From an uncultured Prolixibacteraceae bacterium (GTDB lineage: Bacteria; Bacteroidota; Bacteroidia; Bacteroidales; FEN-979): a DNA stretch of 64,000 nt. The stretch spans positions 1,534-65,533 of the forward strand of contig CAZXQU010000006.1 of NCBI GenBank assembly GCA_964642545.1. Reading direction: 5' to 3'. The position numbers and the translations under genes are program-made. Shown in pieces: positions 9,957-56,182 of this stretch. The notes below the pieces were generated by a model that worked only from the letters and a program-made list of their open reading frames with translations, was not told where the DNA came from and did not search any database. Positions within the stretch are counted from its first letter, which is position 1. Each line of letters begins with the position of its first letter.

Positions 9957-12488
9957 TTGAAAACTAAGATTGAACAAAATATCATTCGGCTCAGCGAGAT
10001 CGGGGATGAGCCGGTAGGTGGGAAAGCCCTTGGGCTGAAACGACTAAAAGAGCTGGGACTTCCTGTACCTGAAGCTTTTGTTATCGTTCATCCTGATCCG
10101 GATAACCTTGACCCGGATTTTCTGAATAAACACATTGATTTACTTGGAGAAGGGCCGAAAGCCGTTCGCTCTTCCGCCGTCAGCGAAGATGGGCACGACG
10201 CCTCATTTGCCGGTCAGTTTGAATCATTTTTGAACGTTAACGGCAAGGATGATATCCTGCATGCGATTCGGAATTGTGTGACCGCTGCCTCTTCCGAACG
10301 GGTGAAACATTACTCTCAAAGCCGTATTACAGAAGCCGATCTGCGAATTTCCGTGATTGTTCAGAATATGGTTCCGGCTACTTGCGCCGGCGTAATTTTT
10401 ACTGCAGATCCTGTTACCCACCGGCGCGACAAGGTGATCATCAATGCAGTTTCCGGACTCGGAGAAGATCTTGTCGCAGGCAAAAAAGATGCACACCATT
10501 ACGAACTATTTAAAAGTGGATCAGACCTTGAGAGTGTAATAAAATCCAACGGGCATCTGCTTACATCCGAACAACTCAGGGAATTGATGTCGGGAGCCAA
10601 AAAAGCTGAAGAGCACTTCCGCCAGCCGATGGACATGGAGTGGGCTATCGACGAATCGGACTCGTTATTCTGGCTTCAGGCCCGGCCGGTCACCACTCTT
10701 GATCACGTTCATTACAACGAACTCGATACTATGAAGGGTTTCAGCGACGACATCTGGACTTTAGGAAATATTGGTGAGATGATGCCCGGTGTAACCACTC
10801 CCCTCACCTACTCGGTAGTAGTGGATGCCATTGACTATGGTATGTGTGTTCTTGCAGATAAAGGCGGAGCATTCAGGTTGAAGAACCGCAATGGATATCA
10901 TTATATCCAGATGTTCTACAACAGGCTGTTCGTGAATATGACCCACATGATGGAATACGCCTCAAATATCTGGCTCAACAAGTCGGAAAATATTCAGATT
11001 GCCTTGAGCGTAAAAGTAAATACCGATATCCGTGAAAAGTACAAGGCCCCATTGCTCAAGCGGGTATTCAACTTCGGCAAGCAAGCTTCAACTGTCATCA
11101 GGGCTAACAGTTACCTCAAAAAACTTAGGGTACTGGCCGGCGGTTTCAGGATCGATACAACACTGCCTGTCAGAGAATTGTGGGAATCTCTGGGTAAAGG
11201 CAAAAGGGATGTCAGTGTTGGTTTTGGCCACCATCTCATCACATCCGGGCAATCAGGGAGTCTCTATTCCGCTTTTATGGGGATCATGACAGACGACAAA
11301 AGGTTGCCCGACGCAAACGATCATCACATTGCAACGATACTGCTCTCTGACATCCCGAATATCGAAAGTGCCGATGCAGTGAAATCACTGGAATCTTTTT
11401 CACAAGAGATCAGGAACCATCAGGAATTTGCAAATCAATTTATATCTGTAACCCCGGAGGAGGCGATTTCATTAATCCAACACGAGTCTCCATCAGAAAT
11501 CAGGGAAAAATACCAGAATTTCATCACCCGACATGGCCACCGTTGCATACGCGAGAGCGAACTGCGTGAGAAACCCTGGGAGGAGAACCAGGAACACCTT
11601 GTCCAGTTACTGCAAACAAAGGTCAGGTTCGGTGACCTTGAGCACCGATCCATCGATGTAAAACAGGAGATCCGTAGGACATTGAAGAAACTACCACTCC
11701 ATAAACGATTGGTATTCAAAATCCTTTTACCCACAGCACGAACGGCCGTTGCTCGTAGGGAGATATCTAAAGCTCTGGCGATAAAGATGGTGAATGAACT
11801 TAGGAAGGGGTACAGGGTATTGGCAGAGAAAATGTTCTGCGATACGGGATCAGCGATACGGGATACGGGATCTGTGATCAACGATTCTTTTTCTCGTATC
11901 GCGAATCACGAATCGCGTATCGGACTATTAGATGATACCGATCAAATATACTTTCTGACCCATGAAGAGATTGGGCAGTTAATAGAAACAGGAGACCGCT
12001 CCCTGCTTGAGAAGGCGAACCGTCGCCGGAAACTTTTACCTGAGACTGACAAACTGCAATTCAATGAAATTTGCTTTGGGATCCCCGAACCCATAGAACA
12101 CCCGGAAACAATTGAAATCAAAGAGGGACAACTTCATGGAACTCCTGTGAGCAGCGGAAAAGTTAAAGCCCGTGTACGAATCATCCATACCCTCGAAGAT
12201 GCCGACAAACTGGAGCGGGGAGAGATTATGGTAGCCTCGTTTACTGATATAGGGTGGACTCCCTATTTCAGTATCATTTCAGGCCTTGTCACCGAGATCG
12301 GGAGCCCTCTTTCTCACGGTGCCGTAGTGGCACGGGAATACGGCATCCCAGCAGTGGTTGGCGTAAAAGGAGCCAGGGCATCCCTTACTGATGGTGAATT
12401 TGTCCTCCTCGACGGGGACCGGGGGATTGTTGAAAGGATGAGGGACGAGGGAAGAGGATTACCCCCCAATCCCCTGAAGGGGGAGTAA
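9957..12488 (+). CDS. PEP-utilizing enzyme with rifampin-phosphotransferase-like architecture (N-terminal PEP/pyruvate-binding ATP-grasp, long middle domain, C-terminal swivel His domain)
   Basis: N-terminus GGKALGLKRLKELGLPVPEAFVI, RSSAVSEDG..SFAGQF and DMEWAI. C-terminus TDIGWTPYFSIISGLVTEIGSPLSHGAVVAREYGIPAVVG. The 843 aa length fits. The apparent start is TTG. The substrate is not inferable. Confidence 0.8.
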   Translation: MKTKIEQNIIRLSEIGDEPVGGKALGLKRLKELGLPVPEAFVIVHPDPDNLDPDFLNKHIDLLGEGPKAVRSSAVSEDGHDASFAGQFESFLNVNGKDDILHAIRNCVTAASSERVKHYSQSRITEADLRISVIVQNMVPATCAGVIFTADPVTHRRDKVIINAVSGLGEDLVAGKKDAHHYELFKSGSDLESVIKSNGHLLTSEQLRELMSGAKKAEEHFRQPMDMEWAIDESDSLFWLQARPVTTLDHVHYNELDTMKGFSDDIWTLGNIGEMMPGVTTPLTYSVVVDAIDYGMCVLADKGGAFRLKNRNGYHYIQMFYNRLFVNMTHMMEYASNIWLNKSENIQIALSVKVNTDIREKYKAPLLKRVFNFGKQASTVIRANSYLKKLRVLAGGFRIDTTLPVRELWESLGKGKRDVSVGFGHHLITSGQSGSLYSAFMGIMTDDKRLPDANDHHIATILLSDIPNIESADAVKSLESFSQEIRNHQEFANQFISVTPEEAISLIQHESPSEIREKYQNFITRHGHRCIRESELREKPWEENQEHLVQLLQTKVRFGDLEHRSIDVKQEIRRTLKKLPLHKRLVFKILLPTARTAVARREISKALAIKMVNELRKGYRVLAEKMFCDTGSAIRDTGSVINDSFSRIANHESRIGLLDDTDQIYFLTHEEIGQLIETGDRSLLEKANRRRKLLPETDKLQFNEICFGIPEPIEHPETIEIKEGQLHGTPVSSGKVKARVRIIHTLEDADKLERGEIMVASFTDIGWTPYFSIISGLVTEIGSPLSHGAVVAREYGIPAVVGVKGARASLTDGEFVLLDGDRGIVERMRDEGRGLPPNPLKGE
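11841..11923 (+). repeat. Intragenic in-frame GAT-heptamer element (GATACGG GATCAGC GATACGG GATACGG GATCTGT GATCAAC ... GTATCGC GAATCAC GAATCGC GTATCGG)
   Basis: Read directly. It encodes DTGSAIRDTGSVINDSFSRIANHESRIG inside the PEP-utilizing enzyme. The two halves are partly reverse-complementary (CGATACG / CGTATCG). Confidence 0.85.
12436..12456 (+). repeat. Heptamer array (GGATGAG GGACGAG GGAAGAG) inside the last codons of the PEP-utilizing enzyme
   Basis: Read directly. It encodes the RDEGRG tail. The same unit family occurs at 56183-56232, 57630-57727 and in the parC tail. Confidence 0.8.
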
Positions 12489-12505
12489 GTCCCCTTCAGG
12501 GGATT
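12468..12505. terminator. 15-bp stem-loop between convergent genes (AATCCCCTGAAGGGG / CCCCTTCAGGGGATT), possible bidirectional terminator
   Basis: Positions 12468-12482 pair perfectly with 12491-12505. The TAA stop (12486-12488) sits in the loop. TTT follows on the plus strand. Confidence 0.6.
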
Positions 12506-12521
12506 TAGGGGCGACTTTACT

Positions 12522-13238
12522 TTACTTCAGAAAATTCTTTGAAACGAATTCCTGAAACTTCACTTTGTACTGCTCACTCACAGGAATGTAGGTTGTAACA
12601 TCGAAGATGATGCGGTTTCGCTCAATGGTTGTGATCCTGTCCAGGTTGACAATATAGGAACGGTGAACCCGCATAAATCGTTCGGATGGAAGTTGCTCTT
12701 CCAGTGACTTCATACTCATCAGCGACATCACAGGTTTACCATTAGAAAGATGGATCCTGACGTATTCCCCTTTTCCTTCAATGTATTTGATATCCTGAAA
12801 AGCGACTCTGACAATCTTATACTCTGATTTGATAAAAAGAAAATCCTCTTTGTTAGACAATAGAACCGGAACCTGGCGATGAAGCTCGAACCAGGATCTG
12901 GCTTTGTTCGCAGCTTTTAAAAATGCTGTATAATCAACCGGTTTCAGCAAATAATCCAAAGCATTGACCTGAAACCCTTCAACAGCATATTGGCTGTATG
13001 CAGTGGTAAATATAACCTGAACTGGCTGATCAAGAGATTTTACAAAATCCATCCCGCTCAGATCGGGCATATGGATGTCGACAAACATTAGATCAATCTC
13101 ATTCTCTTTCAGCAATTCCATTGCCTTAAAAGCACTCTCGCAACTGGCCACAAGTTCCAGGAATGGAGTCTTGTCAATATATGATGCCAATTGTTTCAGC
13201 GCAAGAGGTTCATCATCGATAGTCAGGCAATGGATCAT
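12522..13238 (-). CDS. LytTR-family response regulator
   Basis: REC (CLTIDDEPLAL...DLMFVDIHMPDLSG) plus a LytTR DNA-binding domain (RVHRSYIVNLDRI). Confidence 0.9.
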   Translation of the reverse strand: MIHCLTIDDEPLALKQLASYIDKTPFLELVASCESAFKAMELLKENEIDLMFVDIHMPDLSGMDFVKSLDQPVQVIFTTAYSQYAVEGFQVNALDYLLKPVDYTAFLKAANKARSWFELHRQVPVLLSNKEDFLFIKSEYKIVRVAFQDIKYIEGKGEYVRIHLSNGKPVMSLMSMKSLEEQLPSERFMRVHRSYIVNLDRITTIERNRIIFDVTTYIPVSEQYKVKFQEFVSKNFLK

Positions 13239-14395: not shown

Positions 14396-14402
14396 ATATA
14401 GT

Positions 14403-16688: not shown

Positions 16689-16715
16689 GGGATAAAAATT
16701 TTGGTTAGTTGGTTA

Positions 16716-18218: not shown

Positions 18219-18404
18219 TGATTTTTTGAGTTTATGATAGCAAAAGTAACCGCTTGTCCTTCGTCGATCAAAATATAATCAACGAAAACGGGAAATATTC
18301 TATTGAATCCGAAGATATTAATACTAAACAAAAGAGTTATAATGATGGGAAATAAGACATGAGGGTCGAGGGCAAATGGAAGAGAGTCGAAACCCACTGC
18401 CAAC

Positions 18405-18868: not shown

Positions 18869-18984
18869 CTAGCAATGCTCCACCATAGACCCCACTACAG
18901 GGTAATGCTAGTTCCATAGGATTCCTCAACACACTCGTTGTGCGACCATGTAGCTCCTTCTGATAAGTGCAAAGGAGTATACAC

Positions 18985-20403: not shown

Positions 20404-20457
20404 ATCAAGGAGTTTATTTGTTGTGAATGGATTATTGTTTTTACATCAAACAGTCAC

Positions 20458-20997: not shown

Positions 20998-21056
20998 GAT
21001 GCAAAACCAGAAAATTCAATTCTTTGCCGAAAACGGCAACTAGTACCTAAAATGAA

Positions 21057-21428: not shown

Positions 21429-21478
21429 GTTGCAAAGGTAGATTGATTTTGGTTGATTTATTCCTGGATAATTTAATT

Positions 21479-22783: not shown

Positions 22784-22794
22784 GGAATCAATCC

Positions 22795-23660: not shown

Positions 23661-25448
23661 TTAGACTTCATGGATCAGGATATTGGCATTATAGGCTTTT
23701 ATAATATGTTTTGTCAGCCGATTCAATCCTTTCGGGCCATAAACCTCCAGGGACTCATTCCTGCCCATCACCCATGGGGTGAGGATCAGATCGGGATAAC
23801 CGGTGGTATGATCAGAATGCAGATGGGTGAGGAATGCGTGCTTAGTGTTTTTCGTTGCAAGTCCCTTGATTGGTCCGCCATACCTTTGTGAAAGAGCAGC
23901 TGCCTGCCTGACCAGTCCGGGACCAAAATCGACAATATTAGGGACATCATTTACGACGATCGCGATGGAATATCCCGATTGATGCGGATAGGGGTTGGGG
24001 TTGCCGGAACCCAATATCACAACATGAGTGTTTCCATCGGGAAGTTGTGACGGAATCACATCCGGGAGATGCTTTTCAGGCTGAACAGTGTCTATTTTTC
24101 CCAATTTAAAATCAAGGTAAACCTTTTCCTTTTCAATAGAATGTTTGTTATCTGGATACTGATCTTCATATCTCTTGATCAACCGAAGAGCTTCCAGATA
24201 GTTGCTGTCGGCTTCCAATATATTTATCCGGAACATTAGTGAATCAAACGGGATGATATTGGATACCCTGCCAGCAGCAGTTTCAGATGCTCCCAGAAGC
24301 TGTATGCCAGACCCATCAATCATTTGTCGCGTATCGCTATACGCCTCTTCCGCCATCTTCCGGGAAGTAAGATCCAGCCATGGCAAGGTGGTATCTGAAG
24401 CAGCCCGTTCGGCTGGATAGATGATGTGTTTCTTCATCCTGGGATTTGTTCCACGGTAGACCCAGGTAGGTAAATACCGGATTCCGGATACCCTGATGCC
24501 TGATGCCGGATATTTTGTAAGCTCTACCTGCAGGATCATACCGGCATCAGTGTATCTCCAATACTGGTTGGAATAGAAATTCCCCATCGATGTAGCCACA
24601 AACCCTGAGTCAAGTATACCGCCGGATGTTTTAAAAAAGCGAACCTTTCCGATTATATGCGGATGACTTCCAATCACAATATCAGTACCCGCCGCGATCG
24701 TTTTTTCAATAATGGCTTCCTGCGAGGCAGTTTCATCGCTGTACATCTCCTGACCATAATGGTAAAAGACAATAACGATCTCCGCCCCAGCTTTTCTGGC
24801 GTACAAAATATCCTGCCCGATAGATGCCGTATCTATCAGGTTCAACATGTAGCGATGCTCCTTACATGGATAAAATTCGTTTGATCCATAGGAATAATTC
24901 AGGATTGCAATCGGAATGCCCTTTAAATTGATTACCCTTATTGAATCGTGATCATGTTGTGAATTAAATGTCCCTGAGCGTCCCAATCCGATGGAGTCGA
25001 TCACCCTGATGGTGCGTAATAATCCCTTCTCGCGCATATCCATTGAATGGTTGTTTGCCGTTACCAGAAAGTCGAATCCATTTTTTTTCAATGCCCCAAC
25101 GATCTCATCAGGCGTGTTGAAGGCTGGATATCCGGTATATTCCTTAGTAGCTCCGGCACAAACGGTTTCAAAATTTCCGACGGTGAGGTCATCATCTTCA
25201 AGCCATCTCTTTACCTCAGCGAAAGAGGGATTGAAGTCGAAACCATCTTTCCCAACACGGGCATTTTCAAGTTGCGGTGTGTGGCACATGATGTCACCAA
25301 CGAAAGAGAGGCGGATAGTGATAGTGGAATCGGTATAAGTTGAATCATTCTGGGATCCGGCATGTGCTGCAAGATGAACCCAACAGAGAAATACCAATAA
25401 ACCCGAAAGGTTAAAATTCCTATTCACCACAAAGAGACTAAGACACAA
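23661..25448 (-). CDS. CapA-like metallophosphatase (PGA_cap) fused to a shortened MBL-fold domain; interrupted by an in-frame TAA
   Basis: N-terminus: signal-like peptide plus CapA motifs (SFVGDIMCH, VTANNHSMD, IVIGSHPH). C-terminus: FLTHLHSDHTTG MBL motif ending ILIHEV-stop. The same frame continues for 49 codons down to 23514, with the stop codon at 23511-23513 (FQKGW...HQHHHTSTIEVGQ...). Confidence 0.7.
   Translation of the reverse strand: MCLSLFVVNRNFNLSGLLVFLCWVHLAAHAGSQNDSTYTDSTITIRLSFVGDIMCHTPQLENARVGKDGFDFNPSFAEVKRWLEDDDLTVGNFETVCAGATKEYTGYPAFNTPDEIVGALKKNGFDFLVTANNHSMDMREKGLLRTIRVIDSIGLGRSGTFNSQHDHDSIRVINLKGIPIAILNYSYGSNEFYPCKEHRYMLNLIDTASIGQDILYARKAGAEIVIVFYHYGQEMYSDETASQEAIIEKTIAAGTDIVIGSHPHIIGKVRFFKTSGGILDSGFVATSMGNFYSNQYWRYTDAGMILQVELTKYPASGIRVSGIRYLPTWVYRGTNPRMKKHIIYPAERAASDTTLPWLDLTSRKMAEEAYSDTRQMIDGSGIQLLGASETAAGRVSNIIPFDSLMFRINILEADSNYLEALRLIKRYEDQYPDNKHSIEKEKVYLDFKLGKIDTVQPEKHLPDVIPSQLPDGNTHVVILGSGNPNPYPHQSGYSIAIVVNDVPNIVDFGPGLVRQAAALSQRYGGPIKGLATKNTKHAFLTHLHSDHTTGYPDLILTPWVMGRNESLEVYGPKGLNRLTKHIIKAYNANILIHEV
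24474..24515 (+). repeat. Intragenic in-frame heptamer element (ATACCGG ATTCCGG ATACCCT GATGCCT GATGCCG GATATTT)
   Basis: Six heptamers, 42 nt in total. On the minus strand it encodes YPASGIRVSGIRYL in the CapA-like protein. Confidence 0.75.
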
Positions 25449-25485
25449 AGATCATAAAAAATAGCTATGTCGCAAACAATGGAAT

Positions 25486-26307: not shown

Positions 26308-27420
26308 ATGGTTCGTCAAAAATTTCCATTACGTTATTTTCTGCCACTGATAATTTCTTTGTTCTGTTTCCCAATAACTACGCTAAATGCCCAACGAGGC
26401 GGCATCAGGGTCCCCGTCGATACGATTGGTTTTGCTACCCAGGCATGGCAGATGGATTCAATAATGGCAAGAATCAACAGACAATTCGGGGCGCAAATCA
26501 AACAGGCTCTTGCGAAAAAGAAAATTTCTAAAAAGTCCATCTGGAAAATGGCCATTTGTCCGCACGACGATTACGCCTACGCGGGATGGATGTACCCAAT
26601 GGCATTGCAGAACATCAAAGCACCAGTTGTAATTTTACTTGGAGTGGCCCACAAAGCAAGGCAGTTTGGGATCGAAGGAAAAATGGTCTTCGATTCTCAC
26701 GACTCCTGGCAGGCACCCTATGGAACTGTAAGAATTTCGGGGCTTCGTGATAAGATTACAAACCAGCTTCCCAAAAGTGAATATATCGTCCACGACAGCC
26801 TCCAAAACGTGGAGCACAGCCTCGAGGCATTGGTCCCTTTCCTCCAGTATTATAACCCCACTGTGGAGATCGTTCCCATTCTTGTGCCTGCTATGTCGAT
26901 GGAGAAGATGGAGGGGCTTGCGGGTTCCCTGGCATGGGCTATCTCCAAGGTGATGGTTACAGACGACCTGGAGTGGATGAAAGATATTGCCATTGTCATC
27001 TCCAATGATGCCGTCCATTATGGTTGCGAAGATTGGGGTGGGAAAGACCTGGCACCCTATGGCTGTGACCAGGAGGGGTATCAGAAGGCAGTAGCTCATG
27101 AGCATGAGATCATCGACAATTGCCTCACTGGCGGCATCGTGAAGATGCAAATCCGCCGGTTTGCAGATTATACTGTGCAGGATACCAATTTCAGGATCTA
27201 CAAGTGGACATGGTGTGGCAGGTTCTCGGTTCCATTTGGACTTTTAACAGCGTTCTACCTTCAGCAACATACCAGAACCTATCCTCCTTCCGGGACAGTT
27301 ATCGGGTACTCAACATCCATCGACCATCCGATCCTGCCGGTTGAAGACCTGGGAATGGGTGTCACCGCTCCGGCTAATGTCAAGCATTGGGTGGGCTATG
27401 TGGTAGTGGGTTATAGGTAG
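26308..27420 (+). CDS. Memo-like (AmmeMemoRadiSam protein B family) protein with signal peptide
   Basis: CPHDDYAYAG, GVAHK and SNDAVHYG motifs resemble MEMO1. Start chosen at MVRQKFPLRYFLPLIISLFCFPITTLNA; the longest ORF starts at 26218. Confidence 0.65.
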   Translation: MVRQKFPLRYFLPLIISLFCFPITTLNAQRGGIRVPVDTIGFATQAWQMDSIMARINRQFGAQIKQALAKKKISKKSIWKMAICPHDDYAYAGWMYPMALQNIKAPVVILLGVAHKARQFGIEGKMVFDSHDSWQAPYGTVRISGLRDKITNQLPKSEYIVHDSLQNVEHSLEALVPFLQYYNPTVEIVPILVPAMSMEKMEGLAGSLAWAISKVMVTDDLEWMKDIAIVISNDAVHYGCEDWGGKDLAPYGCDQEGYQKAVAHEHEIIDNCLTGGIVKMQIRRFADYTVQDTNFRIYKWTWCGRFSVPFGLLTAFYLQQHTRTYPPSGTVIGYSTSIDHPILPVEDLGMGVTAPANVKHWVGYVVVGYR

Positions 27421-35091: not shown

Positions 35092-36276
35092 ATGAGACAT
35101 TTAAAAAGTTTTCAAGGCAGGCAGCTAATGCTTGGTTTACTTTTATGCCACCTTAATTTGCCACAGTCGCAGATAACCCTCTCCGAAAATTGTGCCATAG
35201 CCGATAGTTGTCAGAATTCGGGTCAAAATGTCAGAATCCTCTTCTGGAATGTCGAAAACCTTTTTGACTATAAGGATGACACACTTACTGCCGACGAAGA
35301 GTTTACCGGCAACGGAGCTATGCATTGGAGTTATACGAAACTTCAGACAAAACTCGCGCATGTAGCCAAAGCCATCCTGGCTGCCGGAGAGTGGGACCCT
35401 CCTGTCATAATAGGCATGTGTGAGATTGAGAACCGATATGTGCTGAATAAACTGATTTACAATTCTCCTCTAAAGTCATCTGGATACCGGATCATTCACC
35501 GCAACTCCCCCGACAGCCGTGGTATCGATGTAGCCATGCTCTACCGTGCAGATGCATTTACCCCAATGTTTACCGAATGGATCACTATCAAATTCCCTTT
35601 CGACACCACTGCTACAACTCGGGATATACTCTATGCCAAAGGGATTCTGTTCGATTCAGATACCATCCATCTATTTGTCAACCACTGGCCATCAAGGCGT
35701 GGAGGAGAGGCGGCTTCTGCGCCGAGAAGGAATTATGTAGCGTCGGTACTGCGTGCGAAAATTGATTCCATTCTGAAAGCAGATACGCATTATACGATGC
35801 GCAATATGCGATACGCGATACACGATCAAAAGATACCTGATGCCAGATCCCTGATGCTGGATACCACATCTCAAATCGCAGATCCTTCACTCCTGATCAT
35901 GGGCGACTTCAACGATGAGCCTGAAAACGAGAGCCTGCAGAATATTCTGAAAGCGCGACTGGATGCAGGAGATCTGAAGCCCGGGGACCTGATTAACATG
36001 ATGCATCTGATGGTAAACAAAGAGGGCAGCCATAAATTCAGGGAACATTGGGGTTTGCTCGACCAGTTTATTGTCTCCGGCTCCCTCCTGGACAAACAAC
36101 ATCCGCTTCAGGTTGATCCCGGCAGTGTCCAGATATTCAAACCAGCTTTTCTTATGGAAGATGACCTGAAGTACCTAGGCACTAAACCCAAACGCACCTA
36201 CCTCGGACCGAGGTATAAGGGAGGGTTTTCGGATCATCTGCCTGTTGTGATGGAAATTAGGAAATTAGGAAATTAG
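35092..36276 (+). CDS. Endonuclease/exonuclease/phosphatase (EEP) family protein
   Basis: FWNVENLFD, MCEIEN, VNHWPSRRGG, GDFNDEP and SDHLPV motifs. The last codons (RKLGN) are encoded by a GGAAATTA array. Confidence 0.85.
   Translation: MRHLKSFQGRQLMLGLLLCHLNLPQSQITLSENCAIADSCQNSGQNVRILFWNVENLFDYKDDTLTADEEFTGNGAMHWSYTKLQTKLAHVAKAILAAGEWDPPVIIGMCEIENRYVLNKLIYNSPLKSSGYRIIHRNSPDSRGIDVAMLYRADAFTPMFTEWITIKFPFDTTATTRDILYAKGILFDSDTIHLFVNHWPSRRGGEAASAPRRNYVASVLRAKIDSILKADTHYTMRNMRYAIHDQKIPDARSLMLDTTSQIADPSLLIMGDFNDEPENESLQNILKARLDAGDLKPGDLINMMHLMVNKEGSHKFREHWGLLDQFIVSGSLLDKQHPLQVDPGSVQIFKPAFLMEDDLKYLGTKPKRTYLGPRYKGGFSDHLPVVMEIRKLGN
35782..35866 (+). repeat. Intragenic in-frame GAT-heptamer element (GATACGC ATTATAC GATGCGC AATATGC GATACGC GATACAC GATCAAAA GATACCT GATGCCA GATCCCT GATGCTG GATACCA)
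   Basis: Read directly. It encodes DTHYTMRNMRYAIHDQKIPDARSLMLDT inside the EEP protein. Confidence 0.8.
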
Positions 36277-36291
36277 GAAATTAGGAAAATA
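36252..36291 (+). repeat. (GGAAATTA)x4 plus GGAAAATA octamer array
   Basis: Read directly. It contains the TAG stop (36274-36276) of the EEP gene. Confidence 0.95.
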
Positions 36292-36314
36292 ATAAATTAA
36301 GGAAGGGGACGAGG

Positions 36315-36677
36315 ATGAAATTGGAAGAGTTGAAGATTTATCAGGTTGCCATGGAGATTGGCGAGGAAATCTGGAGAATAGTCAAGCCACTGGATTATTT
36401 TACAAAAGAAACTATTGGGAAACAAATCGTGAAGTCATCAGACTCAATTGCATCGAATATTAGCGAAGGCTATGGGAGGTTCCATTATCGCGAATCACGT
36501 ATGTTTTATTTTTATGCCAGAGGCTCCGCATTCGAAACCAAAACCTGGATAAAAAAGCTCTACAATCGAAGGAAGCTCAATGAAGAAGAGTATAAAAGAA
36601 TATATAACTTAATTGAATTTGAATGTGCTTCCCTAAACAACTATATAAAAACGGTGGGCCCAAAAGAAGCACATTGA
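36315..36677 (+). CDS. Four-helix-bundle protein (23S rRNA intervening-sequence protein / Avd-like family)
   Basis: 120 aa. Family-typical blocks LKIYQVAMEI, QIVKSSDSIASNISEGYGR, FYARGSAFETKTWI. Confidence 0.8.
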   Translation: MKLEELKIYQVAMEIGEEIWRIVKPLDYFTKETIGKQIVKSSDSIASNISEGYGRFHYRESRMFYFYARGSAFETKTWIKKLYNRRKLNEEEYKRIYNLIEFECASLNNYIKTVGPKEAH

Positions 36678-36695
36678 ATCCTAAGCACCTCCCCT

Positions 36696-36727
36696 TAATT
36701 TCCTATTTTCCTAATTTCCTAACTCCC
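36696..36727 (-). repeat. Octamer array; sense (minus) strand reads GGGAGTTA GGAAATTA GGAAAATA GGAAATTA
   Basis: The plus strand reads TAATTTCC TATTTTCC TAATTTCC TAACTCCC. It abuts the TAG stop of the radical SAM gene and is inverted relative to 36252-36291. Confidence 0.9.
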
Positions 36728-37884
36728 TACCCCCACCTCCCCGCAATCGCATTTCCACAAAACCCACACTTCCCCTCCTTCAGGTTGTTTGTAAGGATCG
36801 TAAACCCCTTTCTTTCCAGGACCACTTTGTTGCATTTCGGACAATAGGTATTTTCGGCTTTGTTGTTTGGGACATTGCCGATGTAGACGTACTTGATGCC
36901 GGCTTTTTTTGCAATATCGTGAGCCTCTTCAAGGATTGCCAGAGGGGTGAACGGTAGATTGGTCAACTGATAGAGGGGGAAGAAGCGGCTAAAATGGAGC
37001 GGACAGTCTTCGAGTCCGTTGTCTACCAGCCATGTACACATCTCTCTGATCATCTCAGGTTTGTCGGTCCAGTTTGGAACAACCAGGTTGGTAATCTCCA
37101 GCCAGACACCCATTTCATGCAATATTTTCAATGTCCTCAGGATCGGCGCAAGATGTCCGCCATTCAGATTCTGATAGATCTCATCGGAAAATGACTTCAG
37201 GTTGATATTGGCGCCATCAATATAGACAGCCATGTCTCTCAACGGTTTTTCATTGATATAACCATTTGATACCAGGACGTTTTTAATCCCTCTCTGTCGG
37301 GCAAGTTTTGCAGAGTCAAACATATACTCATAAAATGCTATCGGTTCGGAATAAGTATATGCGATGGATAGGGCCCCACTGGCAACCGCCTCGTCAACCA
37401 GGACTTCAGGGAAGAGATCGTAGTTTTTGGTCTCACGCGGGCTCACCTGGGAGATCTCCCAGTTCTGGCAATTCAGGCATGCCAGGGTACATCCGGCAAT
37501 GGCCACAGAATATGCCCGCGAAGTAGGATAGAAATGAAAAAGGGGTTTCTTCTCAATCGGATCCACGTGAATGGAGCAGGGATTGCCATAACCAATCGTG
37601 TAAAGCTTCCCGTCCTTGGCAACTTTCGTGCGACAGAGGCTCTCATTCCCCTCGGTGAGGGTGCATTGGTTTGGGCAGATCAGGCACCTCACCCCTTTTG
37701 GGGTCACAATGCTATAGGGTGACTCTTTGCTGAACCGCCCCAATCCGCCATCCGGAATTCCTGTTTCACTATTCATACCTGTTATGTTTGCCAACGACTC
37801 CATTGAATTCAACCCAATAGCTGCTCCTCCTGCACCCAGAAGGCTCCGGCGAAGAAATTCCCGTTTGGATATCTTATGGCTCAT
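36727..37884 (-). CDS. AmmeMemoRadiSam system radical SAM enzyme with twin-arginine-like N-terminus
   Basis: CX3CX2C (GCTLACLNCQNW). N-terminal Cys cluster (CLICPNQC). C-terminal CPKC...CGFC. N-terminus MSHKISKREFLRRSLLGAGGAAIG. The longest ORF starts at 37917. Confidence 0.85.
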   Translation of the reverse strand: MSHKISKREFLRRSLLGAGGAAIGLNSMESLANITGMNSETGIPDGGLGRFSKESPYSIVTPKGVRCLICPNQCTLTEGNESLCRTKVAKDGKLYTIGYGNPCSIHVDPIEKKPLFHFYPTSRAYSVAIAGCTLACLNCQNWEISQVSPRETKNYDLFPEVLVDEAVASGALSIAYTYSEPIAFYEYMFDSAKLARQRGIKNVLVSNGYINEKPLRDMAVYIDGANINLKSFSDEIYQNLNGGHLAPILRTLKILHEMGVWLEITNLVVPNWTDKPEMIREMCTWLVDNGLEDCPLHFSRFFPLYQLTNLPFTPLAILEEAHDIAKKAGIKYVYIGNVPNNKAENTYCPKCNKVVLERKGFTILTNNLKEGKCGFCGNAIAGRWG

Positions 37885-37981
37885 GATGATCTCATCAAAG
37901 TTACTAAAAAAATCCAAAGAATTGGGCTAAAGCCCAGTAATACACAACTTCCCATTGCCTCCCTAACACATGCAATGACAA

Positions 37982-38044
37982 TAATTTCCTAATTTCCTAA
38001 TTTCTCACCTCCAGGCTCCCTGACCTCCTGACTTCCTGACTCTT
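37982..38044 (-). repeat. Composite array; sense strand reads AAGAGTCA GGAAGTCA GGAGGTCA ... AGAAATTA GGAAATTA GGAAATTA
   Basis: The plus strand reads TAATTTCC TAATTTCC TAATTTCT ... TGACCTCC TGACTTCC TGACTCTT. It starts 3 nt after the stop of 38047..40176. Confidence 0.9.
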
Positions 38045-44599: not shown

Positions 44600-44622
44600 T
44601 TGGTTTTATTTACGAATAATTC

Positions 44623-44693
44623 GATTTCCGATTTGGGATTTGAGATTTGAGACTTGGATATTATTTGTTATTTGTGATTTGTTATTTGATTAT
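44623..44693 (+). repeat. Heptamer arrays (GATTTCC GATTTGG GATTTGA GATTTGA GACTTGG) then (TTGTTAT TTGTGAT TTGTTAT)
   Basis: Read directly. It overlaps the last codons and stop of 44682..45386. On that gene's sense strand it is CA-rich, the opposite polarity to most arrays. Confidence 0.85.
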
Positions 44694-45386
44694 TGACCTA
44701 TCTGTATATTTCCCAATGTCTCTCCACTCCAGCGAGTTATCCATGTATCCCTTGATAAGATGATCTGATGCGAGTCTGATGTATAAATCTGTAAGCGAGA
44801 ATCTTCCTGTTTCAATCATCAATGAAAAGATTTCTGGCTGAAGAATTTGTATGCCGCTGAATGCGAGAGGATGCAACTCCTCACACTTCATGCTTATCCT
44901 CTTTTCACCGCTCTTTTTGTTTTCCCATCCGCAAAGCCTGTTCTTGTCATTAAACAGAAAATAACGAGAAGTTTCACGAGTACGGACTGCGAGTGTAGCA
45001 AGGGGCTTAACGAGTGCATGAGCCCTGGCCATCAGGCTGAGATCAAGATCGGAAAGGATATCTGCATTTCTAACGAGAAACGGCTTACCATCATCAAAAA
45101 ACCAGGAAGCCTTTTTCAGTCCACCGCCTGTCTCCAGCAACTCCTCTGATTCGTCGGAGATTGTAATGGACAAACCAAAATTATCATTCGCCCTGAGAAA
45201 ATCCCGAATCTGCGCAGGGAAGTGGTGTACATTGATGATGACATCCCGTATCCCGTATCGCTTAACGTGTTCCAGCGTATACTGCAGCAATGGTTTTCCC
45301 TCCACCACCACAAGTGCTTTGGGGATTGAATTTGTGATTGGCCGCAACCGCGTACCCAATCCCGCTGCAAGTATCATCGCTTTCAT
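44682..45386 (-). CDS. Sugar-1-phosphate nucleotidyltransferase, MurU-like
   Basis: N-terminus MILAAGLGTRLRPIT plus an NTP_transferase fold. Adjacent to an AmgK-like kinase gene. Confidence 0.8.
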   Translation of the reverse strand: MKAMILAAGLGTRLRPITNSIPKALVVVEGKPLLQYTLEHVKRYGIRDVIINVHHFPAQIRDFLRANDNFGLSITISDESEELLETGGGLKKASWFFDDGKPFLVRNADILSDLDLSLMARAHALVKPLATLAVRTRETSRYFLFNDKNRLCGWENKKSGEKRISMKCEELHPLAFSGIQILQPEIFSLMIETGRFSLTDLYIRLASDHLIKGYMDNSLEWRDIGKYTDRSIIK

Positions 45387-45388
45387 TT

Positions 45389-45474
45389 GTTCGCTGTTCG
45401 CTTTCCTAATTTCCTAATTTCTTAATTTCCCACATCCCTACTCTCATACTCTCATACCCTCAACCCTCTTACCC
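45389..45474 (-). repeat. Composite array filling the spacer; sense strand has GGTAAGAG GGTTGAGG (GTATGAGA)x2 ... (GGAAATTA-type)x3 ... (GCGAACA)x2
   Basis: The plus strand reads TGTTCGC TGTTCGC TTTCCTAA TTTCCTAA TTTCTTAA TTTCCCAC ATCCCTAC TCTCATAC TCTCATAC CCTCAACC CTCTTACC. Confidence 0.9.
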
Positions 45475-45476
45475 AT

Positions 45477-46964
<1,488 letters not shown>

Positions 46965-46972
46965 TCTACTTC

Positions 46973-47009
46973 CCTAATTTCCTAATTTCCTAATTTCGAA
47001 TTTCCTACC
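46973..47009 (-). repeat. Octamer array; sense strand reads GGTAGG AAATTCG AAATTAGG AAATTAGG AAATTAGG
   Basis: The plus strand reads CCTAATTT x3, then CGAATTT CCTACC. It abuts the TGA stop of 47010..50213. Confidence 0.9.
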
Positions 47010-50213: not shown

Positions 50214-50524
50214 CCATCGACGAAAGAACTACGTGGCCAATGGGTTGAAAAATAAAACATCCCGGGAAACTCAAAACCAAAAGAGGAGGACGAGTCCCAG
50301 CTACCATTTGTATCCACCCGCTGGTTCATTGCCTCCAGCATCGAAAAATCCCATATAAAATTGCTTCCTGTTACAGCGTAATTAACAGGAACGACACTTG
50401 TCATGCTTACCCGAAGTGTATCTCCAGGACCGGGCATGTCAGATTGATCGATAGAGATCTGCGAAAAGAGCACAAGTGGGAGACAAAGCAGGAGACAACG
50501 GAGAGTAAAGATACTGGGTTTCAT
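50189..50524 (-). CDS. Hypothetical small secreted protein (possibly a truncated remnant)
   Basis: Signal peptide (LLLCLPLVLFSQ). 111 aa. Its 3' end overlaps the helicase start by 25 nt. No family recognised. Confidence 0.35.
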   Translation of the reverse strand: MKPSIFTLRCLLLCLPLVLFSQISIDQSDMPGPGDTLRVSMTSVVPVNYAVTGSNFIWDFSMLEAMNQRVDTNGSWDSSSSFGFEFPGMFYFSTHWPRSSFVDGWMKIFNT

Positions 50525-50543
50525 GATTTTCTGGTTTCTGGTA

Positions 50544-50609
50544 GGTTTTTGGTTATTGAGTTATTGGTTTTTGGTTATTGGTTATTGGTTATTGAGTTAT
50601 TGGGATATT
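50544..50609 (+). repeat. Heptamer/octamer array (GGTTTTT GGTTATT GAGTTATT GGTTTTT GGTTATT x3 GAGTTATT GGGATATT)
   Basis: Read directly, just after the tamB stop (50615). On the tamB sense strand it is CA-rich (AATAACC). Confidence 0.9.
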
Positions 50610-50614
50610 GGGCT

Positions 50615-53600: not shown

Positions 53601-55051
53601 ATCAGAGAGCCATTGACGGCGATATTTTTATAATTATACCCATTAAGTGCGGCAGAGTCGATATGCCCCTGCATCAGCAGGTCAGCGTTGTCGAATGAAA
53701 TACCCTGTCCATCCAGGTTAGCCCGCAGGGTGACCTTTCCAAAAAGTTCTGTGTCCTCAATCAGTATGCCCAAATTAAACGCGGTGATACTTAGTTCACC
53801 TTTGTAAGCCAGAGGGCCTCCTTTGGTTGGTTGCTTCAACTGAAGGTTTGTTGCTGCGGTTCCGATATCTGTATGAAATTCAGCCCGGGAAATAAAGTCA
53901 TCCATGAAACCCGTAAATTCACCATGGATATTGATTAAGCCAAGATTCGTTATGATTGATGGGATTGGCAAGGTATCAGGATCCCCTGGAATCCTGAATG
54001 AACGTATATCTTGGGCAGTTGACGTAAAATTATTGATTTTCATGTCAACATAAGTGGCCATGACATTGGGCAACCCAACAGCCTTAATATCTCCGTCGAA
54101 GAGGGTATTCTCGCCAAAACCAATTCGTAAGTTATGCGCATTGAACTTACTGACCGTACCTGCGATATCTCCCTCGAGATTGAAACGGTTGGTCATTTTT
54201 TTTACCTCAGGGGCAAAGAATCCGATATCGGTCATGTCAAACTCGGAGGGTTGGATATCAGCCTCAATCCTCACGAGTTTCAGGAAATCTGTAAAAGCGA
54301 CGAAGCCGTTGTACCGGAAAGCAAAATCAAGCTCAAGATTTGAGTTGTCGGTAACCAGTTTCAGCTTCTCCACCTCAATAAACTGGTCACAAACCCTGCA
54401 GTCGCCCTGAAAATCATGCAGATTAATTCCACTTCGTTCCTTTGCCGACAAACTGTTGATTGTCGCACACATTGTGTCACCTTCAATTCTGACGCCAGAG
54501 ATATCGAGGTTGATATTATCCACATCAATATTCGCGTAATCCATCCCTTCAGGTGCTGCAGGCTTGGTTTCATCCTGGTAGTGAAAACGGATTCCTTTCA
54601 GTTCGACATGATTGCAGATAATTGTAAATGGGGTTGTTGGCGCAGTGTCTGGCGGTTTTGGTATCGTGTCTTTGGATGCAAAATAATTGATTATATACTG
54701 AAGATTGAGGATGGAGTCTCCCTGATGCTTCAACAGCTGGAACTCTCCCTCACTGATCATAATCTTTTGCACCATGATATTTCTGCCGGACAGACTGAAC
54801 CAGATTGGCTTGACTCCAAGGATCTGTGCAGCAAATAGGGTTGTATCCAGATTGTCCTTCACCAGGATATCTTCAATGACCAGTCCGTTGTTGAAAGAGA
54901 TGTCGAATTTTCCAATACGAATTTCCGTACCAATTTCTTTTGTAAGATAATCAGCAGCCAGTTTAGCTGAAAGGCTTTGGACCCATGTATCGCGCAATAC
55001 AAGAGTTACAGTCATGATCAGTGAGATCAGGACCGTTAACAGATAGGCCAA
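50615..55051 (-). CDS. tamB: Translocation and assembly module protein TamB
   Basis: 1478 aa, N-terminal TM anchor, long beta-rich body, and a C-terminal DUF490-like end (DINIEYILTKNRRWRIRAFNR). Apparent TTG start. Confidence 0.85.
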   Translation of the reverse strand: MAYLLTVLISLIMTVTLVLRDTWVQSLSAKLAADYLTKEIGTEIRIGKFDISFNNGLVIEDILVKDNLDTTLFAAQILGVKPIWFSLSGRNIMVQKIMISEGEFQLLKHQGDSILNLQYIINYFASKDTIPKPPDTAPTTPFTIICNHVELKGIRFHYQDETKPAAPEGMDYANIDVDNINLDISGVRIEGDTMCATINSLSAKERSGINLHDFQGDCRVCDQFIEVEKLKLVTDNSNLELDFAFRYNGFVAFTDFLKLVRIEADIQPSEFDMTDIGFFAPEVKKMTNRFNLEGDIAGTVSKFNAHNLRIGFGENTLFDGDIKAVGLPNVMATYVDMKINNFTSTAQDIRSFRIPGDPDTLPIPSIITNLGLINIHGEFTGFMDDFISRAEFHTDIGTAATNLQLKQPTKGGPLAYKGELSITAFNLGILIEDTELFGKVTLRANLDGQGISFDNADLLMQGHIDSAALNGYNYKNIAVNGSLIRKKFFGDVTVDDPNLQFTFHGMANVSDSLPIFNFDARIAHAQLFNLHLLERDSIEIFSAFIEADFSGNTIDNADGTLNLHDISYWEGRNRAVIDSLLLRTISDSSGKTVYEVRSDLLDADFTGEFEFSKLVPSVITFIQKYMASFEMRSDSTRKYHHSGQKLNYRVEFKKTADITAIFLPFLEISPGAFLEGNYNEDKKLLSLTGRSDVLHIRGMDLENWFVDAEAHTDDLSLQTGCDQLIMNKSRPTDTVYVQLDMLLLTSSIRHDSILYKVSSDSGEDYSYLQGFLTFQEEGSVKIKLDDLDLKLAGNSWSISKENYVILDTALMEFHDLSFTSGNQMLSLNGRVTHHEVDTLDLEFNGVDVSQLDYLLSNPNVDVDGILSGSLKITDIYNELSIYSDLKLDNFIFNKQHLGDAVFQVNYNQTEGKFDVLSEIIYTGNIGQNIPFSLQGSIFTNKPEAHFDLDLKLKNLNLKMLQPFVASFMSKLTGLASGEVKITGTLNEPSLQGELNLMRTEFKINYLNVPYSLSEVIQIKPDKFDFDNIVLYDSLGNKAYLNGSIDHNYFKDIRLNLAISMDDFSAFKNTYAQNSTFFGNARASGKVSITGPLDNIVVDVVASTGNNTHVTIPISLTQGVGQVDYIVFKQSVQDSLEEVKGSSRIHPSTGLTLALSLDVKSDAQVEVLFPDQLGNIKATGTGNLSMGMTPTTPFNLFGSYYIYKGSFLFQMKNLIRLPFAIKEGSSISWTGDPTNATISLSAIYKTKVPLTGLSSETSSVQGRIPVECIIRLNGKLMNPVMSFGLELPNAQANERNLVFNAIDTNNTAEMTQQVLYILVMNQFKPVAGGAGGSVDVSSTSLSIVTNQINSWLSGMTQNLNIGVNYNPGSSTTSQDIDMTVSTQLFDDRLLIDGTFGMSSYKNTTSAQASTIVGDINIEYILTKNRRWRIRAFNRTNTIDLLNNNAPYTQGVGISYQRDFYTWRELIKKSNTKKQTPTDK

Positions 55052-55074
55052 TATTTTTCCTGCTGTTTTTATCT

Positions 55075-55082
55075 TATTTTTG
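55075..55082 (+). promoter_or_regulatory. Candidate Bacteroidota -7 box (TATTTTTG) for tsaD
   Basis: It fits TAnnTTTG and lies 27 nt upstream of the tsaD ATG. Confidence 0.35.
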
Positions 55083-55108
55083 CTTTTTGCAAACTGATCT
55101 TACTATTT

Positions 55109-56182
55109 ATGTCCCTGCCCTTTATCCTAGGTATTGAATCCTCTTGTGATGACACTTCTGCATCTGTGGTGGAAGGCACCATCGTTCGATCAAATGTGAC
55201 TGCCACCCAGGATATCCACAGGAAATTTGGGGGAGTAGTCCCGGAGCTGGCATCCCGTGCTCATCAGCAAAATATCATACCCGTAATTGAAGCCGCAATC
55301 CAACAAGCAAATATAGATAAAAATCAGCTTGCTGCAGTGGCTTTTACACAGGGTCCGGGGCTACTTGGATCGTTGCTTGTAGGATCATCTTTTGCAAAGA
55401 GTTTTGCCCTCGGAATGGGCATCCCACTCATCGAGATTGACCATATGCAAGCCCATATCCTGGCACACTTTCTGGAAGATCTTGAAAAGCCACGCCCCAT
55501 CCCAGAATTTCCTTTCCTCTGCCTGACTGTCTCAGGTGGACATACACAGATCGTCCTGGTTAAGGACTACTTCGAAATGGAGGTTTTAGGGCAAACGATT
55601 GATGATGCGGCCGGGGAGGCGTTTGATAAAACCGCCAAGATCCTTGGGCTTCCTTATCCAGGAGGGCCAGTTATTGATAAACTTGCAGCTAAAGGTTATC
55701 CCTCCCGTTTTTCATTCGCCCGTCCCAATATCCCGGGCCTTGATTACAGCTTCAGTGGTCTCAAAACTTCAATTCTCTATTTCATTCGGGATGAGCTGAG
55801 AAAGGATCCAGAATTTATTGAGAAAAACAGGAATGACCTTTGCGCTTCGATCCAGACAACGATTGTAGAGATCTTAATGTCGAAGTTAAAGTTGGCAGTT
55901 CAAGCGATACGCGATACACGATACGCGATATACAATGACCAGATGCCTGATCCCGGATCACAAACCATTGATGTTGCAATCGCCGGCGGGGTTTCGGCCA
56001 ACTCGGCTCTGCGTAAAGCGCTTCTGGAGGCAGCGGCTTCGGAGGGTTGGCGTGCCTTTATCCCTCCATTTGAATATACAACCGATAATGCCGCAATGAT
56101 TGCTGTAGCTGGGTATTTCAAGTTTATTAAGGGTGAATTTGCCCTTCAATCAACAACATCTTATGCAAGGAGCAGATGGTGA
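55109..56182 (+). CDS. tsaD: tRNA N6-adenosine threonylcarbamoyltransferase TsaD
   Basis: ILGIESSCDDT, GGVVPELASRAH, SGGHTQ, DDAAGEAFDKTAKILGLPYPGGP, AGGVSAN and TDNAAMIA motifs. It is about 19 aa longer than typical because of a repeat insertion. Confidence 0.95.
   Translation: MSLPFILGIESSCDDTSASVVEGTIVRSNVTATQDIHRKFGGVVPELASRAHQQNIIPVIEAAIQQANIDKNQLAAVAFTQGPGLLGSLLVGSSFAKSFALGMGIPLIEIDHMQAHILAHFLEDLEKPRPIPEFPFLCLTVSGGHTQIVLVKDYFEMEVLGQTIDDAAGEAFDKTAKILGLPYPGGPVIDKLAAKGYPSRFSFARPNIPGLDYSFSGLKTSILYFIRDELRKDPEFIEKNRNDLCASIQTTIVEILMSKLKLAVQAIRDTRYAIYNDQMPDPGSQTIDVAIAGGVSANSALRKALLEAAASEGWRAFIPPFEYTTDNAAMIAVAGYFKFIKGEFALQSTTSYARSRW
55906..55962 (+). repeat. Intragenic in-frame GAT-heptamer element (GATACGC GATACAC GATACGC GATATAC AATGACCA GATGCCT GATCCCG GATCACA)
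   Basis: 57 nt. It encodes IRDTRYAIYNDQMPDPGSQ immediately before the conserved AIAGGVSAN strand of TsaD. Confidence 0.9.

Follow-up and report, generated by a model that had tools for sequence, protein, structure and literature searches.

Heptanucleotide tandem arrays lying in frame within conserved genes of an uncultured Prolixibacteraceae bacterium

Array-bearing genes of the window

The subject of this report is a stretch of 64,000 nucleotides from an uncultured Prolixibacteraceae bacterium (assembly GCA_964642545.1, contig CAZXQU010000006.1, positions 1,534 to 65,533), hereafter the window, in which short blocks of tandem heptanucleotides built on units such as GATACGG and GATACGC lie within five protein-coding genes. 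By their Pfam matches the hosts are a PPDK_N/PEP-utilizer enzyme (PEP, phosphoenolpyruvate; hereafter the PEP enzyme), a PGA_cap protein, which also has a weak, below-threshold metallo-beta-lactamase-like match, an endonuclease/exonuclease/phosphatase (EEP) protein, a fusion of an APH kinase with a RapZ C-domain (APH-RapZ), and TsaD. An earlier note on this DNA had described GAT-heptamer blocks at five places and claimed that each is an in-frame insertion that leaves its host frame open. Inspection of the sequence finds (GATACGN)n-type heptamers at all five and translation confirms that five of the five frames are open; the insertion itself is borne out by orthologue alignments for the PEP enzyme, EEP, APH-RapZ and TsaD, but not for PGA_cap. 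Four of the five blocks are thus clade-specific in-frame insertions, with the look of translated sequence, in loops or linkers of unrelated conserved proteins; AIRDTRYAIYNDQMPDPGSQ is an example of the peptides that they would encode.

At least three head-to-tail 7-nt units, by which we recognise a heptamer array, are reported by Tandem Repeats Finder (TRF) at six positions with 3.6 to 5.6 copies, namely 11841-11871 (GATACGG, 4.4 copies), 11898-11922, 35795-35826, 45860-45898 (GGGATAC, 5.6 perfect copies, score 78), 45905-45929 and 55904-55930, and our own period scan agrees. The units are imperfect, with 75-100% matches. The two-unit 14-mer GATACGCGATACGC, allowing up to two mismatches, has 16 matches in the window against 0.11 expected, and all 16 fall within five genes. 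Within clusters of at least 90% identity, members taken from different contigs and sources show single-residue differences in other parts of the array-bearing proteins but carry identical arrays, which are therefore neither assembly artefacts nor hypervariable at present. A known structured RNA family was likewise rejected as an explanation, no Rfam family reaching the gathering score anywhere in the window.

A clean insertion of hairpin type lies in the PEP enzyme (open reading frame, ORF, 9957-12488, + strand), where 78 nt (11835..11912), or 26 codons in frame, encode FCDTGSAIRDTGSVINDSFSRIANHE, a stretch of 26 residues missing from 40 of 40 aligned homologues, including the 60%-identical P0361; most homologues match the protein as two stretches with a break at residues 626-655. 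The block is laid out as (GATACGG/GATCAGC)n, a 19-nt spacer and an inverted (CGTATCG/CGAATCA)n running on to 11923. The enzyme is related to 5fbs, 5hv1 and 5hv2 (deposited as phosphoenolpyruvate synthase), and the insert is located where the alignment to them is poor, ahead of the C-terminal mobile domain. The C-terminal tail of the same enzyme, which ends in …RMRDEGRGLPPNPLKGE before the stop codon, is also supplied by repeats.

The EEP gene (ORF 35092-36276, + strand) has an expanded loop at 35782..35886 (residues 231-265), a compound direct array in which GATACGC/GATACAC units drift into GATACCT/GATGCCA/GATCCCT/GATGCTG. The site is the loop ahead of ILIMGDFNDEP, which has about 4 amino acids in the wider family and heptamer-derived variable peptides in the close clade only, and the Pfam match is broken into two stretches. 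In APH-RapZ (ORF 45477-46964, - strand) the block, again of hairpin type, occupies the interdomain linker (45861..45953, residues 338-368) and reads on the sense strand (GATAYGC)4, spacer, (CCGTATC)5; orthologue alignment finds this linker short across the wider family and variable within the clade.

TsaD (ORF 55109-56182, + strand) carries an expanded surface loop at 55904..55966 (residues 266-286), composed of (GCGATAC/ACGATAC)4, an irregular 8-mer and then GATGCCT GATCCCG GATCACA. Alignment of 120 orthologues places the insert, of 18 additional amino acids relative to the 339-aa form, at the turn or loop ahead of DVAIAGGVSANS; distant orthologues (338-340 aa) are without it, and the closest (at least ~76% identity) have mutually different 7-residue periodic peptides, such as IRDTRYAIYNDQMPDPGS, IRNVNYELRITNPGSQIPDPRSRIPDG, IRKEGYRIPDAGCRMPDAGYRIPDP and STVYSPQSTVLKHHGTTAPLH. 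Mapping on to a solved structure, which the earlier note had proposed, aligns the insert with a turn of E. coli TsaD (4ydu), the one that joins the last long helix to strand FKRLVMAGGVSAN. An AlphaFold2 model of mean pLDDT (predicted local distance difference test) 87.3 has helix to residue 270 and coil at residues 271-287, with a pLDDT of 55 over residues 271-280.

The PGA_cap segment WRYTDAG...SGIRVSGIRYLPTW (24462..24560, - strand), which contains the block noted earlier at 24474-24515, is ancestral coding sequence without insertion, the very outcome that the earlier note had named as speaking against its claim: WRYTDAG...SGIRVSGIRYLPTWVY (WRYTDAGMILQVELTKYPASGIRVSGIRYLPTWVY) aligns free of gaps to homologues of 38-46% identity. 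Its periodicity is weak, with a TRF score of 33 at 24492-24511, under the threshold of our own scan. A PGA_cap orthologue in a related genome (L122, 68% identical, match 6187-7971) carries 19 inserted residues, SLSLREAEAARDPKQERRS, at precisely the position that is without an insert in the window, so that the loop is a permissive one even though the window segment itself is ancestral.

The blocks give rise to common peptides in unrelated proteins, as had been pointed out before. AIRDT is present in both the PEP enzyme and TsaD, and RYAIHD in EEP is matched by RYAIRD in APH-RapZ, but the TsaD version, RYAIYND, does not fit the proposed pattern RYAI[RHY]D. The five blocks align with each other solely over the heptamer core, their spacers, ends and lengths being unrelated, and neither a conserved full-length consensus nor a conserved peptide, as would mark a family of Rickettsia palindromic elements (RPEs) or of MITEs (miniature transposable elements with inverted repeats), was found among the five.

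A period-7 and period-8 excess throughout the window

Tandem arrays were counted in the 64-kb window by scanning periods 3 to 12. At a strict threshold the window yields 15 arrays of period 7 and 10 of period 8, with zero arrays for the other periods and zero in shuffled sequence; at a looser one (16 of 21 matches) there are 22 segments of period 7 and 12 of period 8 in 64 kb, periods 6 and 9 yield zero, and shuffles yield 0 to 0.1. These arrays are predominantly intergenic, most intergenic gaps holding compound 7- or 8-nt arrays with units such as (GAGTATGA)n, (AGCGAGA)n, (GGTTATT)n and (GACGTGA)n, or, in one compound example, (AGGTAGTG)n drifting into (AACTGCC)n. This population, present in nearly every gap, had escaped the earlier note. 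Every period-8 array is intergenic or overlaps a gene end, and the period-7 arrays well inside genes are those of GATAC type together with the C-terminal tail of a topoisomerase subunit (61319-61624). Within genes, a genome-wide excess of period-7 and period-8 repeats, as sampled in the window and ~140 kb of relatives, is represented by the GATAC blocks.

Turnover between relatives and continuity with host codons

Comparison at the DNA level with syntenic contigs of relatives (L001, L002, L247 and L248) reveals that the TsaD, EEP and APH-RapZ sites differ from one related genome to another in both unit and copy number. At the TsaD site the window has GCGATAC four times followed by GATGCCT GATCCCG; L001, whose TsaD is 85% identical, has only GCGATAC ATGAAAC ACGATAC, and L002, at 80%, has (AATTACG)3 drifting into (GATCCCR)6. 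The EEP site, a GATACGC-type compound array in the window, holds CATCACC-type units in L247 and (CAGTTGG)n followed by (CCACCTC)-type units in L248, and the APH-RapZ linker, with the inverted arrangement given above in the window, has GATGCCG-type and then AAACCCN-type units in L247. One permissive site is thus occupied by unrelated unit families across genomes whose flanking protein is 70-85% identical.

In two orthologues the array runs into conserved sequence without a break. In P0116, a separate lineage, the TsaD array reads GGGATAT GGGATGC (GCGATGC)n and ends GCG ATA AGA GAT GTT, which encodes the conserved A-I-R-D-V, so that the array end is the conserved AIRD preceding VAVAGG. In the APH-RapZ of P0126, (CGGATCC)n starts within CTG ATC CCG GAT, the conserved L-I-x-D-P that opens the linker, and the TsaD arrays of the clade itself mostly begin xIRD and stop at the conserved GI(R/V)D-VAIAGG. 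Such continuity with conserved 7-periodic codons in P0116 and P0126 points to in-place expansion and not to integration. The codons GGn-ATA-CGn-GAT (G-I-R-D) and GAT-CCC-GGA-TCC (D-P-G-S) each alone amount to 1.7 heptamer copies and are therefore natural seeds.

A seed that has not expanded lies in the NTP-transferase gene (ORF 44682-45386), where CGA TAC GGG ATA CGG GAT at 45240..45263 (- strand) encodes the conserved KRYGIRDV and contains 2.4 GATACGG units with no insertion; RYGIRD, encoded by CGATACGGGATACGGGAT, belongs to the conserved core, and near-identical codons occur in L247 and L250.

Drift from unit to unit can be followed in the same way. GATACGG and GATCCGG differ by one base, at the third base of the Ile codon, and the series gatccgg, gatacgg, gatgcgg, gattcgg is seen in compound arrays of other phyla. 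The GATGCC/GATCCC units, which had previously been taken for a second module, lie one to three bases from the GATAC units and are therefore best taken as drifted units of one compound array.

Inverted arrays and hairpins

The other partner proposed for the GATAC arrays, an array of reverse-complement units, is real: the PEP enzyme and APH-RapZ blocks contain a true inverted array and form strong hairpins, consisting of a (GATACGG)n arm followed by an inverted (GATACGC)n arm with 6 base pairs and one mismatch per unit. In the PEP enzyme the inverted arms measure 31 nt and are 77% complementary. Folding, another of the checks suggested by the earlier note, gave a split answer, with strong structure for the PEP enzyme block (z -3.4 as DNA; -38 kcal/mol, z -4.8 as RNA) and the APH-RapZ block (z -5.2 as DNA; -28 kcal/mol, z -6.2 as RNA) but no hairpin in DNA or RNA folding for EEP (z -0.4) and TsaD (z -0.3). 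Only two of the five blocks are thus palindromic, and the spacers of these two are dissimilar (GATCAACGATTCTTTTTCT versus GAGTTGCA).

GATAC arrays in other genomes

A scan for (GATACRS)3 in one genome per species returned at least 118 loci, distributed among Planctomycetota, Acidobacteriota, Chloroflexota, Verrucomicrobiota, Nitrospirota, Bacteroidota, Desulfobacterota, Proteobacteria, Cyanobacteria, Actinomycetota and others; the figures that follow apply among the matches listed. At distances of more than 300 nt from the GATAC match, 92 period-7 arrays of diverse units were found, against 29, 19 and 13 of periods 8, 6 and 9. An inverted array lies within 250 nt of 23 of the 118 arrays (~20%), against about one in shuffles (~1%), and in these 23 pairs it stands downstream of the GATAC-strand arm 18 times and upstream five times.

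The earlier note had advised counting genic against intergenic copies. In the window the arrays are mostly intergenic, as described above; elsewhere 38% of the GATAC arrays lie deep in long open frames as compared with 65% of random positions, a depletion that fits purifying selection acting on mutational input. A substantial minority is nonetheless in frame within open frames. A Nitrospirota Tgt, compared with solved Tgt structures, has a 16-residue insert exactly at the array, and other array-bearing frames are presumably, as we read them from sequence, those of a P-type ATPase, PurL, ArgS, LpxB, UvrA and a family-9 glycosyltransferase. In-frame inserts of hairpin type in other phyla are found in Tgt and apparently in the P-type ATPase and the glycosyltransferase.

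One open frame read as ArgS (L115) contains two separate GATACAG-derived peptides, EIQDTGYRIQDTE and KQDTGYRLL; more than one array is therefore possible per gene, as reported for Geobacter metallireducens. The notion that GATAC is a special cross-phylum unit was rejected, since in viral contigs it yields 19 loci and two permuted control heptamers yield 14 and 13, so that heptamer arrays seem about equally common whatever their unit. Two viral contigs hold inverted GATAC pairs ~380 nt apart (L201, 4027-4047 on the - strand and 4411-4431 on the + strand; L210, 2475-2495 on the - strand and 2866-2886 on the + strand), of the opposite polarity, the pyrimidine-rich arm leading.

Arrays at gene ends and other loci of the window

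Apart from the GATAC blocks, heptamers also make up the C-terminal tail of a topoisomerase subunit of the DNA_topoisoIV family (61319..61624, - strand; ORF 61316-63991; TRF 19 copies, score 128). The arrays, on the + strand (CCCTCGT)n, (GGTTTCG)n and (GCTCTTC)n, are read as (DEGRGTR)n and (PETQNPN)n, so that the C-terminal ~100 residues, a charged, mainly acidic-basic tail, are almost wholly heptamer-encoded. Relatives have other units at the same place (L001, 13440-13501; L002, 19936-20002).

Among the intergenic arrays the octamer (GGAAATTA)n recurs on the sense strand directly after or overlapping the stops of six genes, in constant orientation to the upstream gene, at 36247-36304, 36692-36735, 37979-38012, 45398-45435, 46963-47007 and 58119-58166. 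The EEP gene takes its last seven codons and its stop (…EIRKLGN) from the first of these (+ strand), and the others adjoin the stops of genes ending at 36727, 38047, 45477, 47010 and 58159. It seems possible that the octamer acts as a 3'-end signal, for example in termination or RNA stability. Further genes end within 7- or 8-nt repeats, which supply C-terminal residues and the stop, at 9850-9861, 12436-12457, 27408-27420 and 56180-56182.

A small gene at 36315-36677, of the 23S rRNA intervening-sequence protein family PF05635, lies between inverted repeats of ~40 nt whose two copies (flanks 36247-36314 and 36678-36735) consist of the octamer array plus TTAAGG(AA)GGGGA. Gene and both flanks are kept in L247 (11143-11626) and absent in L248 (11203-11238), where the convergent neighbours are 35 nt apart, and the locus has the appearance of a cassette that was inserted into an inverted array pair or is bounded by one. 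A second inverted pair, (GACGTGA/GAGGTGA)n at 57627-57719 and (TCTCACG)n at 58040-58063, is ~320 nt apart with the purine-rich arm leading, and flanks an ORF of 87 amino acids (- strand), the remnant, after an internal deletion, of the 212-aa cation-efflux gene that L001 has; L002 has a similar short gene. The gap at 57518-58158 was considered as an array-marked deletion junction and rejected, the junction in the remnant being without an array.

Relation to known repeats

Among prokaryotic long simple sequence repeats (LSSRs; units of 5-11 nt), which have been proposed to arise by slippage, heptanucleotides are the commonest class (Mrazek, Guo and Shah 2007, as summarised in PMC4679880), and a survey with SPADE finds heptamers to be the commonest periodic repeat of prokaryotic intergenic regions, the reason for period 7 being unknown (bioRxiv 10.1101/309039). 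The arrays of the window resemble LSSRs in their head-to-tail 7-nt units, the dominance of period 7, their number per genome, their mostly intergenic and phylogenetically patchy distribution, the slippage proposed for them and the lack of a known function. They differ in that a sizeable set lies in frame in conserved housekeeping genes, whereas the surveys stress triplet-multiple units in genes, and also in that period 8 is frequent and some arrays are paired with an inverted array.

Also comparable are the short tandemly repeated repetitive (STRR) heptamers of cyanobacteria and the TAACTGA arrays known from Beggiatoaceae, Cyanobacteria and five Bacteroidetes (MacGregor 2015, PMC4679880). Like the present arrays they lie near start or stop codons in many intergenic regions, form compounds of related heptamers, occur in few Bacteroidetes and are occasional in ORFs (PMC4679880); the unit sequences differ, however, and TAACTGA, having forward stops, overlaps gene ends only, whereas the GATAC family can be read through. 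Geobacter metallireducens has 49 copies of an element of four tandem GGACCGG repeats within and between genes (PMC2700814), but these constitute one conserved, BLAST-alignable multicopy family and are proposed to be regulatory RNA, whereas here a conserved family sequence is lacking and the units differ by site and by relative.

The Rickettsia elements, which the earlier note had named as its nearest precedent, are of ~150 bp, form families conserved in both sequence and peptide, and count as mobile DNA of a MITE-like type (Ogata et al. 2000, reviewed in PMC10969869). The comparison is apt as regards the outcome, in-frame inserts in unrelated conserved genes that the fold tolerates, and two of the present blocks are palindromic. 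It fails as regards family consensus and mechanism; the blocks of 60-105 nt described here are unlike the Rickettsia elements in their 7-nt units, in having no family consensus and in growing from host codons in one TsaD and one APH-RapZ orthologue.

The small dispersed repeats (SDRs) of Nostoc and related cyanobacteria are reportedly fixed-sequence units of 21-27 nt, dispersed as single copies; these very short elements are said to be associated with heptamer arrays and tolerated inside genes. The blocks of the window, by contrast, are tandem arrays of variable units. Contingency-locus simple sequence repeats (SSRs), as in Haemophilus, Neisseria and Moraxella, are perfect slippage repeats that switch genes by frameshift and vary between isolates. 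Common to these and to the present arrays are short tandem repeats in or beside genes, arising (in the present case probably) by slippage, but the arrays here are imperfect, keep the frame in every case, belong to housekeeping genes whose frames are open and are identical between assemblies, and thus do not behave as phase-variable loci.

Origin of the blocks

We consider it probable that the blocks are heptanucleotide tandem repeats of the known LSSR/STRR kind, abundant in some prokaryotic genomes, that have grown in place and been filtered by selection; a discrete family of mobile elements is most likely not what they are. On such an account the lineage would generate period-7 and period-8 arrays at a high rate throughout its genome. 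Within a gene, an array would begin from a coding stretch that is already 7-periodic, such as the G-I-R-D or D-P-G-S codons, and would grow in a 7-base register, through DNA synthesis that is misaligned or reiterative, while point mutation, for example from GATACGG through GATCCGG to GATGCCG, would turn it into a compound array. Selection would then discard outcomes that are out of frame, contain stops or disturb the fold, so that the survivors should be free of stops, have a net length divisible by 3 and lie in surface loops, interdomain linkers or C-terminal tails, where they would be translated as 7-residue periodic peptides such as RYAIRDT and PDPGSRI. Triplet-multiple arrays would be far better tolerated in genes, yet none occur here; the bias is therefore mutational and not selective. 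What the sequences themselves show is the periodicity, the insertions, the turnover from relative to relative, the continuity with conserved codons and the placing in loops; slippage as such, translation of the inserts and the source of the inverted arms are conclusions that go beyond them.

Growth in place has to contend with a number of observations that weigh against it. A slip by one unit in the essential tsaD is a frameshift, so that growth must proceed in steps of three units, be compensated by irregular 6- or 8-mers or happen all at once, and ongoing slippage or hypervariability is not seen among the cluster members, whose arrays are identical across contigs and sources. In the window the gene-internal arrays are all of GATAC type and none of the intergenic arrays is. 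Although the GATAC family is free of stops on both strands, avoidance of stop codons was rejected as the reason for its use in genes: of the 2344 heptamer classes, 1612 (69%) lack stops on one strand and 51% lack them on both, a filter too weak to explain why the gene-internal arrays are of GATAC type alone. EEP and TsaD have the order RYAI(H/Y)..DQ.(I/M)PD(A/P) in common, which could mean copying between loci, and the PEP enzyme insert is a clean 78-nt block whose homologues have no visible seed and so resembles an insertion event. Slippage, moreover, leaves unexplained the inverted arms with their polarity, the PEP enzyme insert and the uniform GATAC type of the gene-internal arrays, and when distinct inverted pairs were sought in other genomes without reference to the GATAC pattern the purine-rich arm was 5' in 13 of 16. 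For the hairpin-type blocks, a foldback-type mobile element or break repair may be the origin.

A small non-autonomous palindromic or foldback element of RPE or MITE type, with arms made of heptamer arrays and surviving where it lands in frame, would account for the precise boundaries of the PEP enzyme block, for the strong hairpins there and in APH-RapZ, for the excess and the polarity of inverted arrays near GATAC arrays in other phyla, for the hairpin-type inserts in Tgt and its apparent counterparts, and for the unit order common to EEP and TsaD. We nevertheless think it unlikely, as there is no consensus past the 7-nt unit, arm and total lengths differ as the spacers do, an inverted arm is lacking in three of the five blocks, orthologue arrays in TsaD and APH-RapZ run into conserved host codons, and whole unit families are replaced at one site between close relatives. 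No target-site duplication or flanking direct repeat is visible by eye at the ends of the PEP enzyme insert (11835/11912), where no systematic search was run and the exact ends cannot be set, and no transposase-like gene was noticed in the window among the Pfam matches of the five hosts and the Pfam labels of syntenic neighbours. Somewhat less probable still is that the blocks are scars of DNA-break repair, in which 3' ends would be lengthened in a 7-base register, by synthesis that slips or templates itself, before they are joined; one lengthened end would give a direct array, and two, with the same strand sequence, would give 5'-(unit)n-spacer-(reverse-complement unit)n-3'. Such a process predicts one fixed polarity, in keeping with the leading GATAC-strand arm in 18 of 23 pairs and the purine-rich 5' arm of pairs unrelated to the search pattern; it would also make filler of the unrelated spacers, allow hairpin pairs inside genes, where selection for terminators is implausible, and explain the restriction to periods 7 and 8 as the footprint of an enzyme. 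It is, however, purely inferential and names no enzyme; the pairs are few and in part owe their selection to the search pattern, the hairpin arms of the window differ by one base per unit (GATACGG and GATACGC), which requires an extra assumption, and ordinary replication slippage explains the codon-continuous arrays equally well. That heptamer arrays, and above all the inverted pairs with a preferred purine-rich 5' arm, are footprints of one conserved break-extension process common to many phyla is, similarly, a conjecture to which we give little credence.

Two further explanations deserve still less weight. The arrays might be retained for a function, whether in the protein, as charged or flexible linkers, or in the mRNA, as hairpins at which ribosomes pause or which determine how stable the transcript is, and it is true that inserts persist in the same loops clade-wide and are identical among strains, that two blocks would be very stable mRNA hairpins and that the intergenic octamers are consistently oriented after stop codons. 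Sequence, unit family and length at each site, however, turn over completely between relatives of 75-85% identity, the wider families are mostly without any insert, three of the five blocks are unstructured and the TsaD insert is a low-confidence loop in the AlphaFold2 model, so that we hold functional retention to be quite improbable. That the blocks are ordinary conserved coding sequence with a chance or ancestral resemblance to repeats holds for the PGA_cap segment and for the NTP-transferase RYGIRD site; as an explanation of the whole it is scarcely credible, and for four of the five blocks it is refuted, given that these four are missing from the wider families, that two-unit matches exceed expectation as described above and that period-7 arrays are essentially nil in shuffles.

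Implications

The interest of the finding is in our judgement moderate, the kind of repeat being already known and the mechanism one that we infer. What the lineage offers is a clean natural experiment, in which arrays are written into essential and well-understood enzymes whose ancestral sequence is known from hundreds of orthologues, and the seed, growth and drift of an array can thus be read codon by codon. That genes hold non-triplet arrays but none of 3, 6 or 9 nt shows the strength of the mutational bias. A small possible lead is that the polarity of inverted pairs may bear on why bacterial repeats favour period 7. If the break-extension process were real, the blocks in TsaD and Tgt, and apparently in PurL, ArgS and UvrA, would be healed breaks passed by selection, and the 'prime-number periodicity' of bacterial repeats would have an enzymatic cause. 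Whatever their origin, array inserts create new surface loops and C-terminal tails, and the insert peptides shared by unrelated proteins, such as RYAIRDT and PDPGSRI, can mislead homology searches and domain calls.

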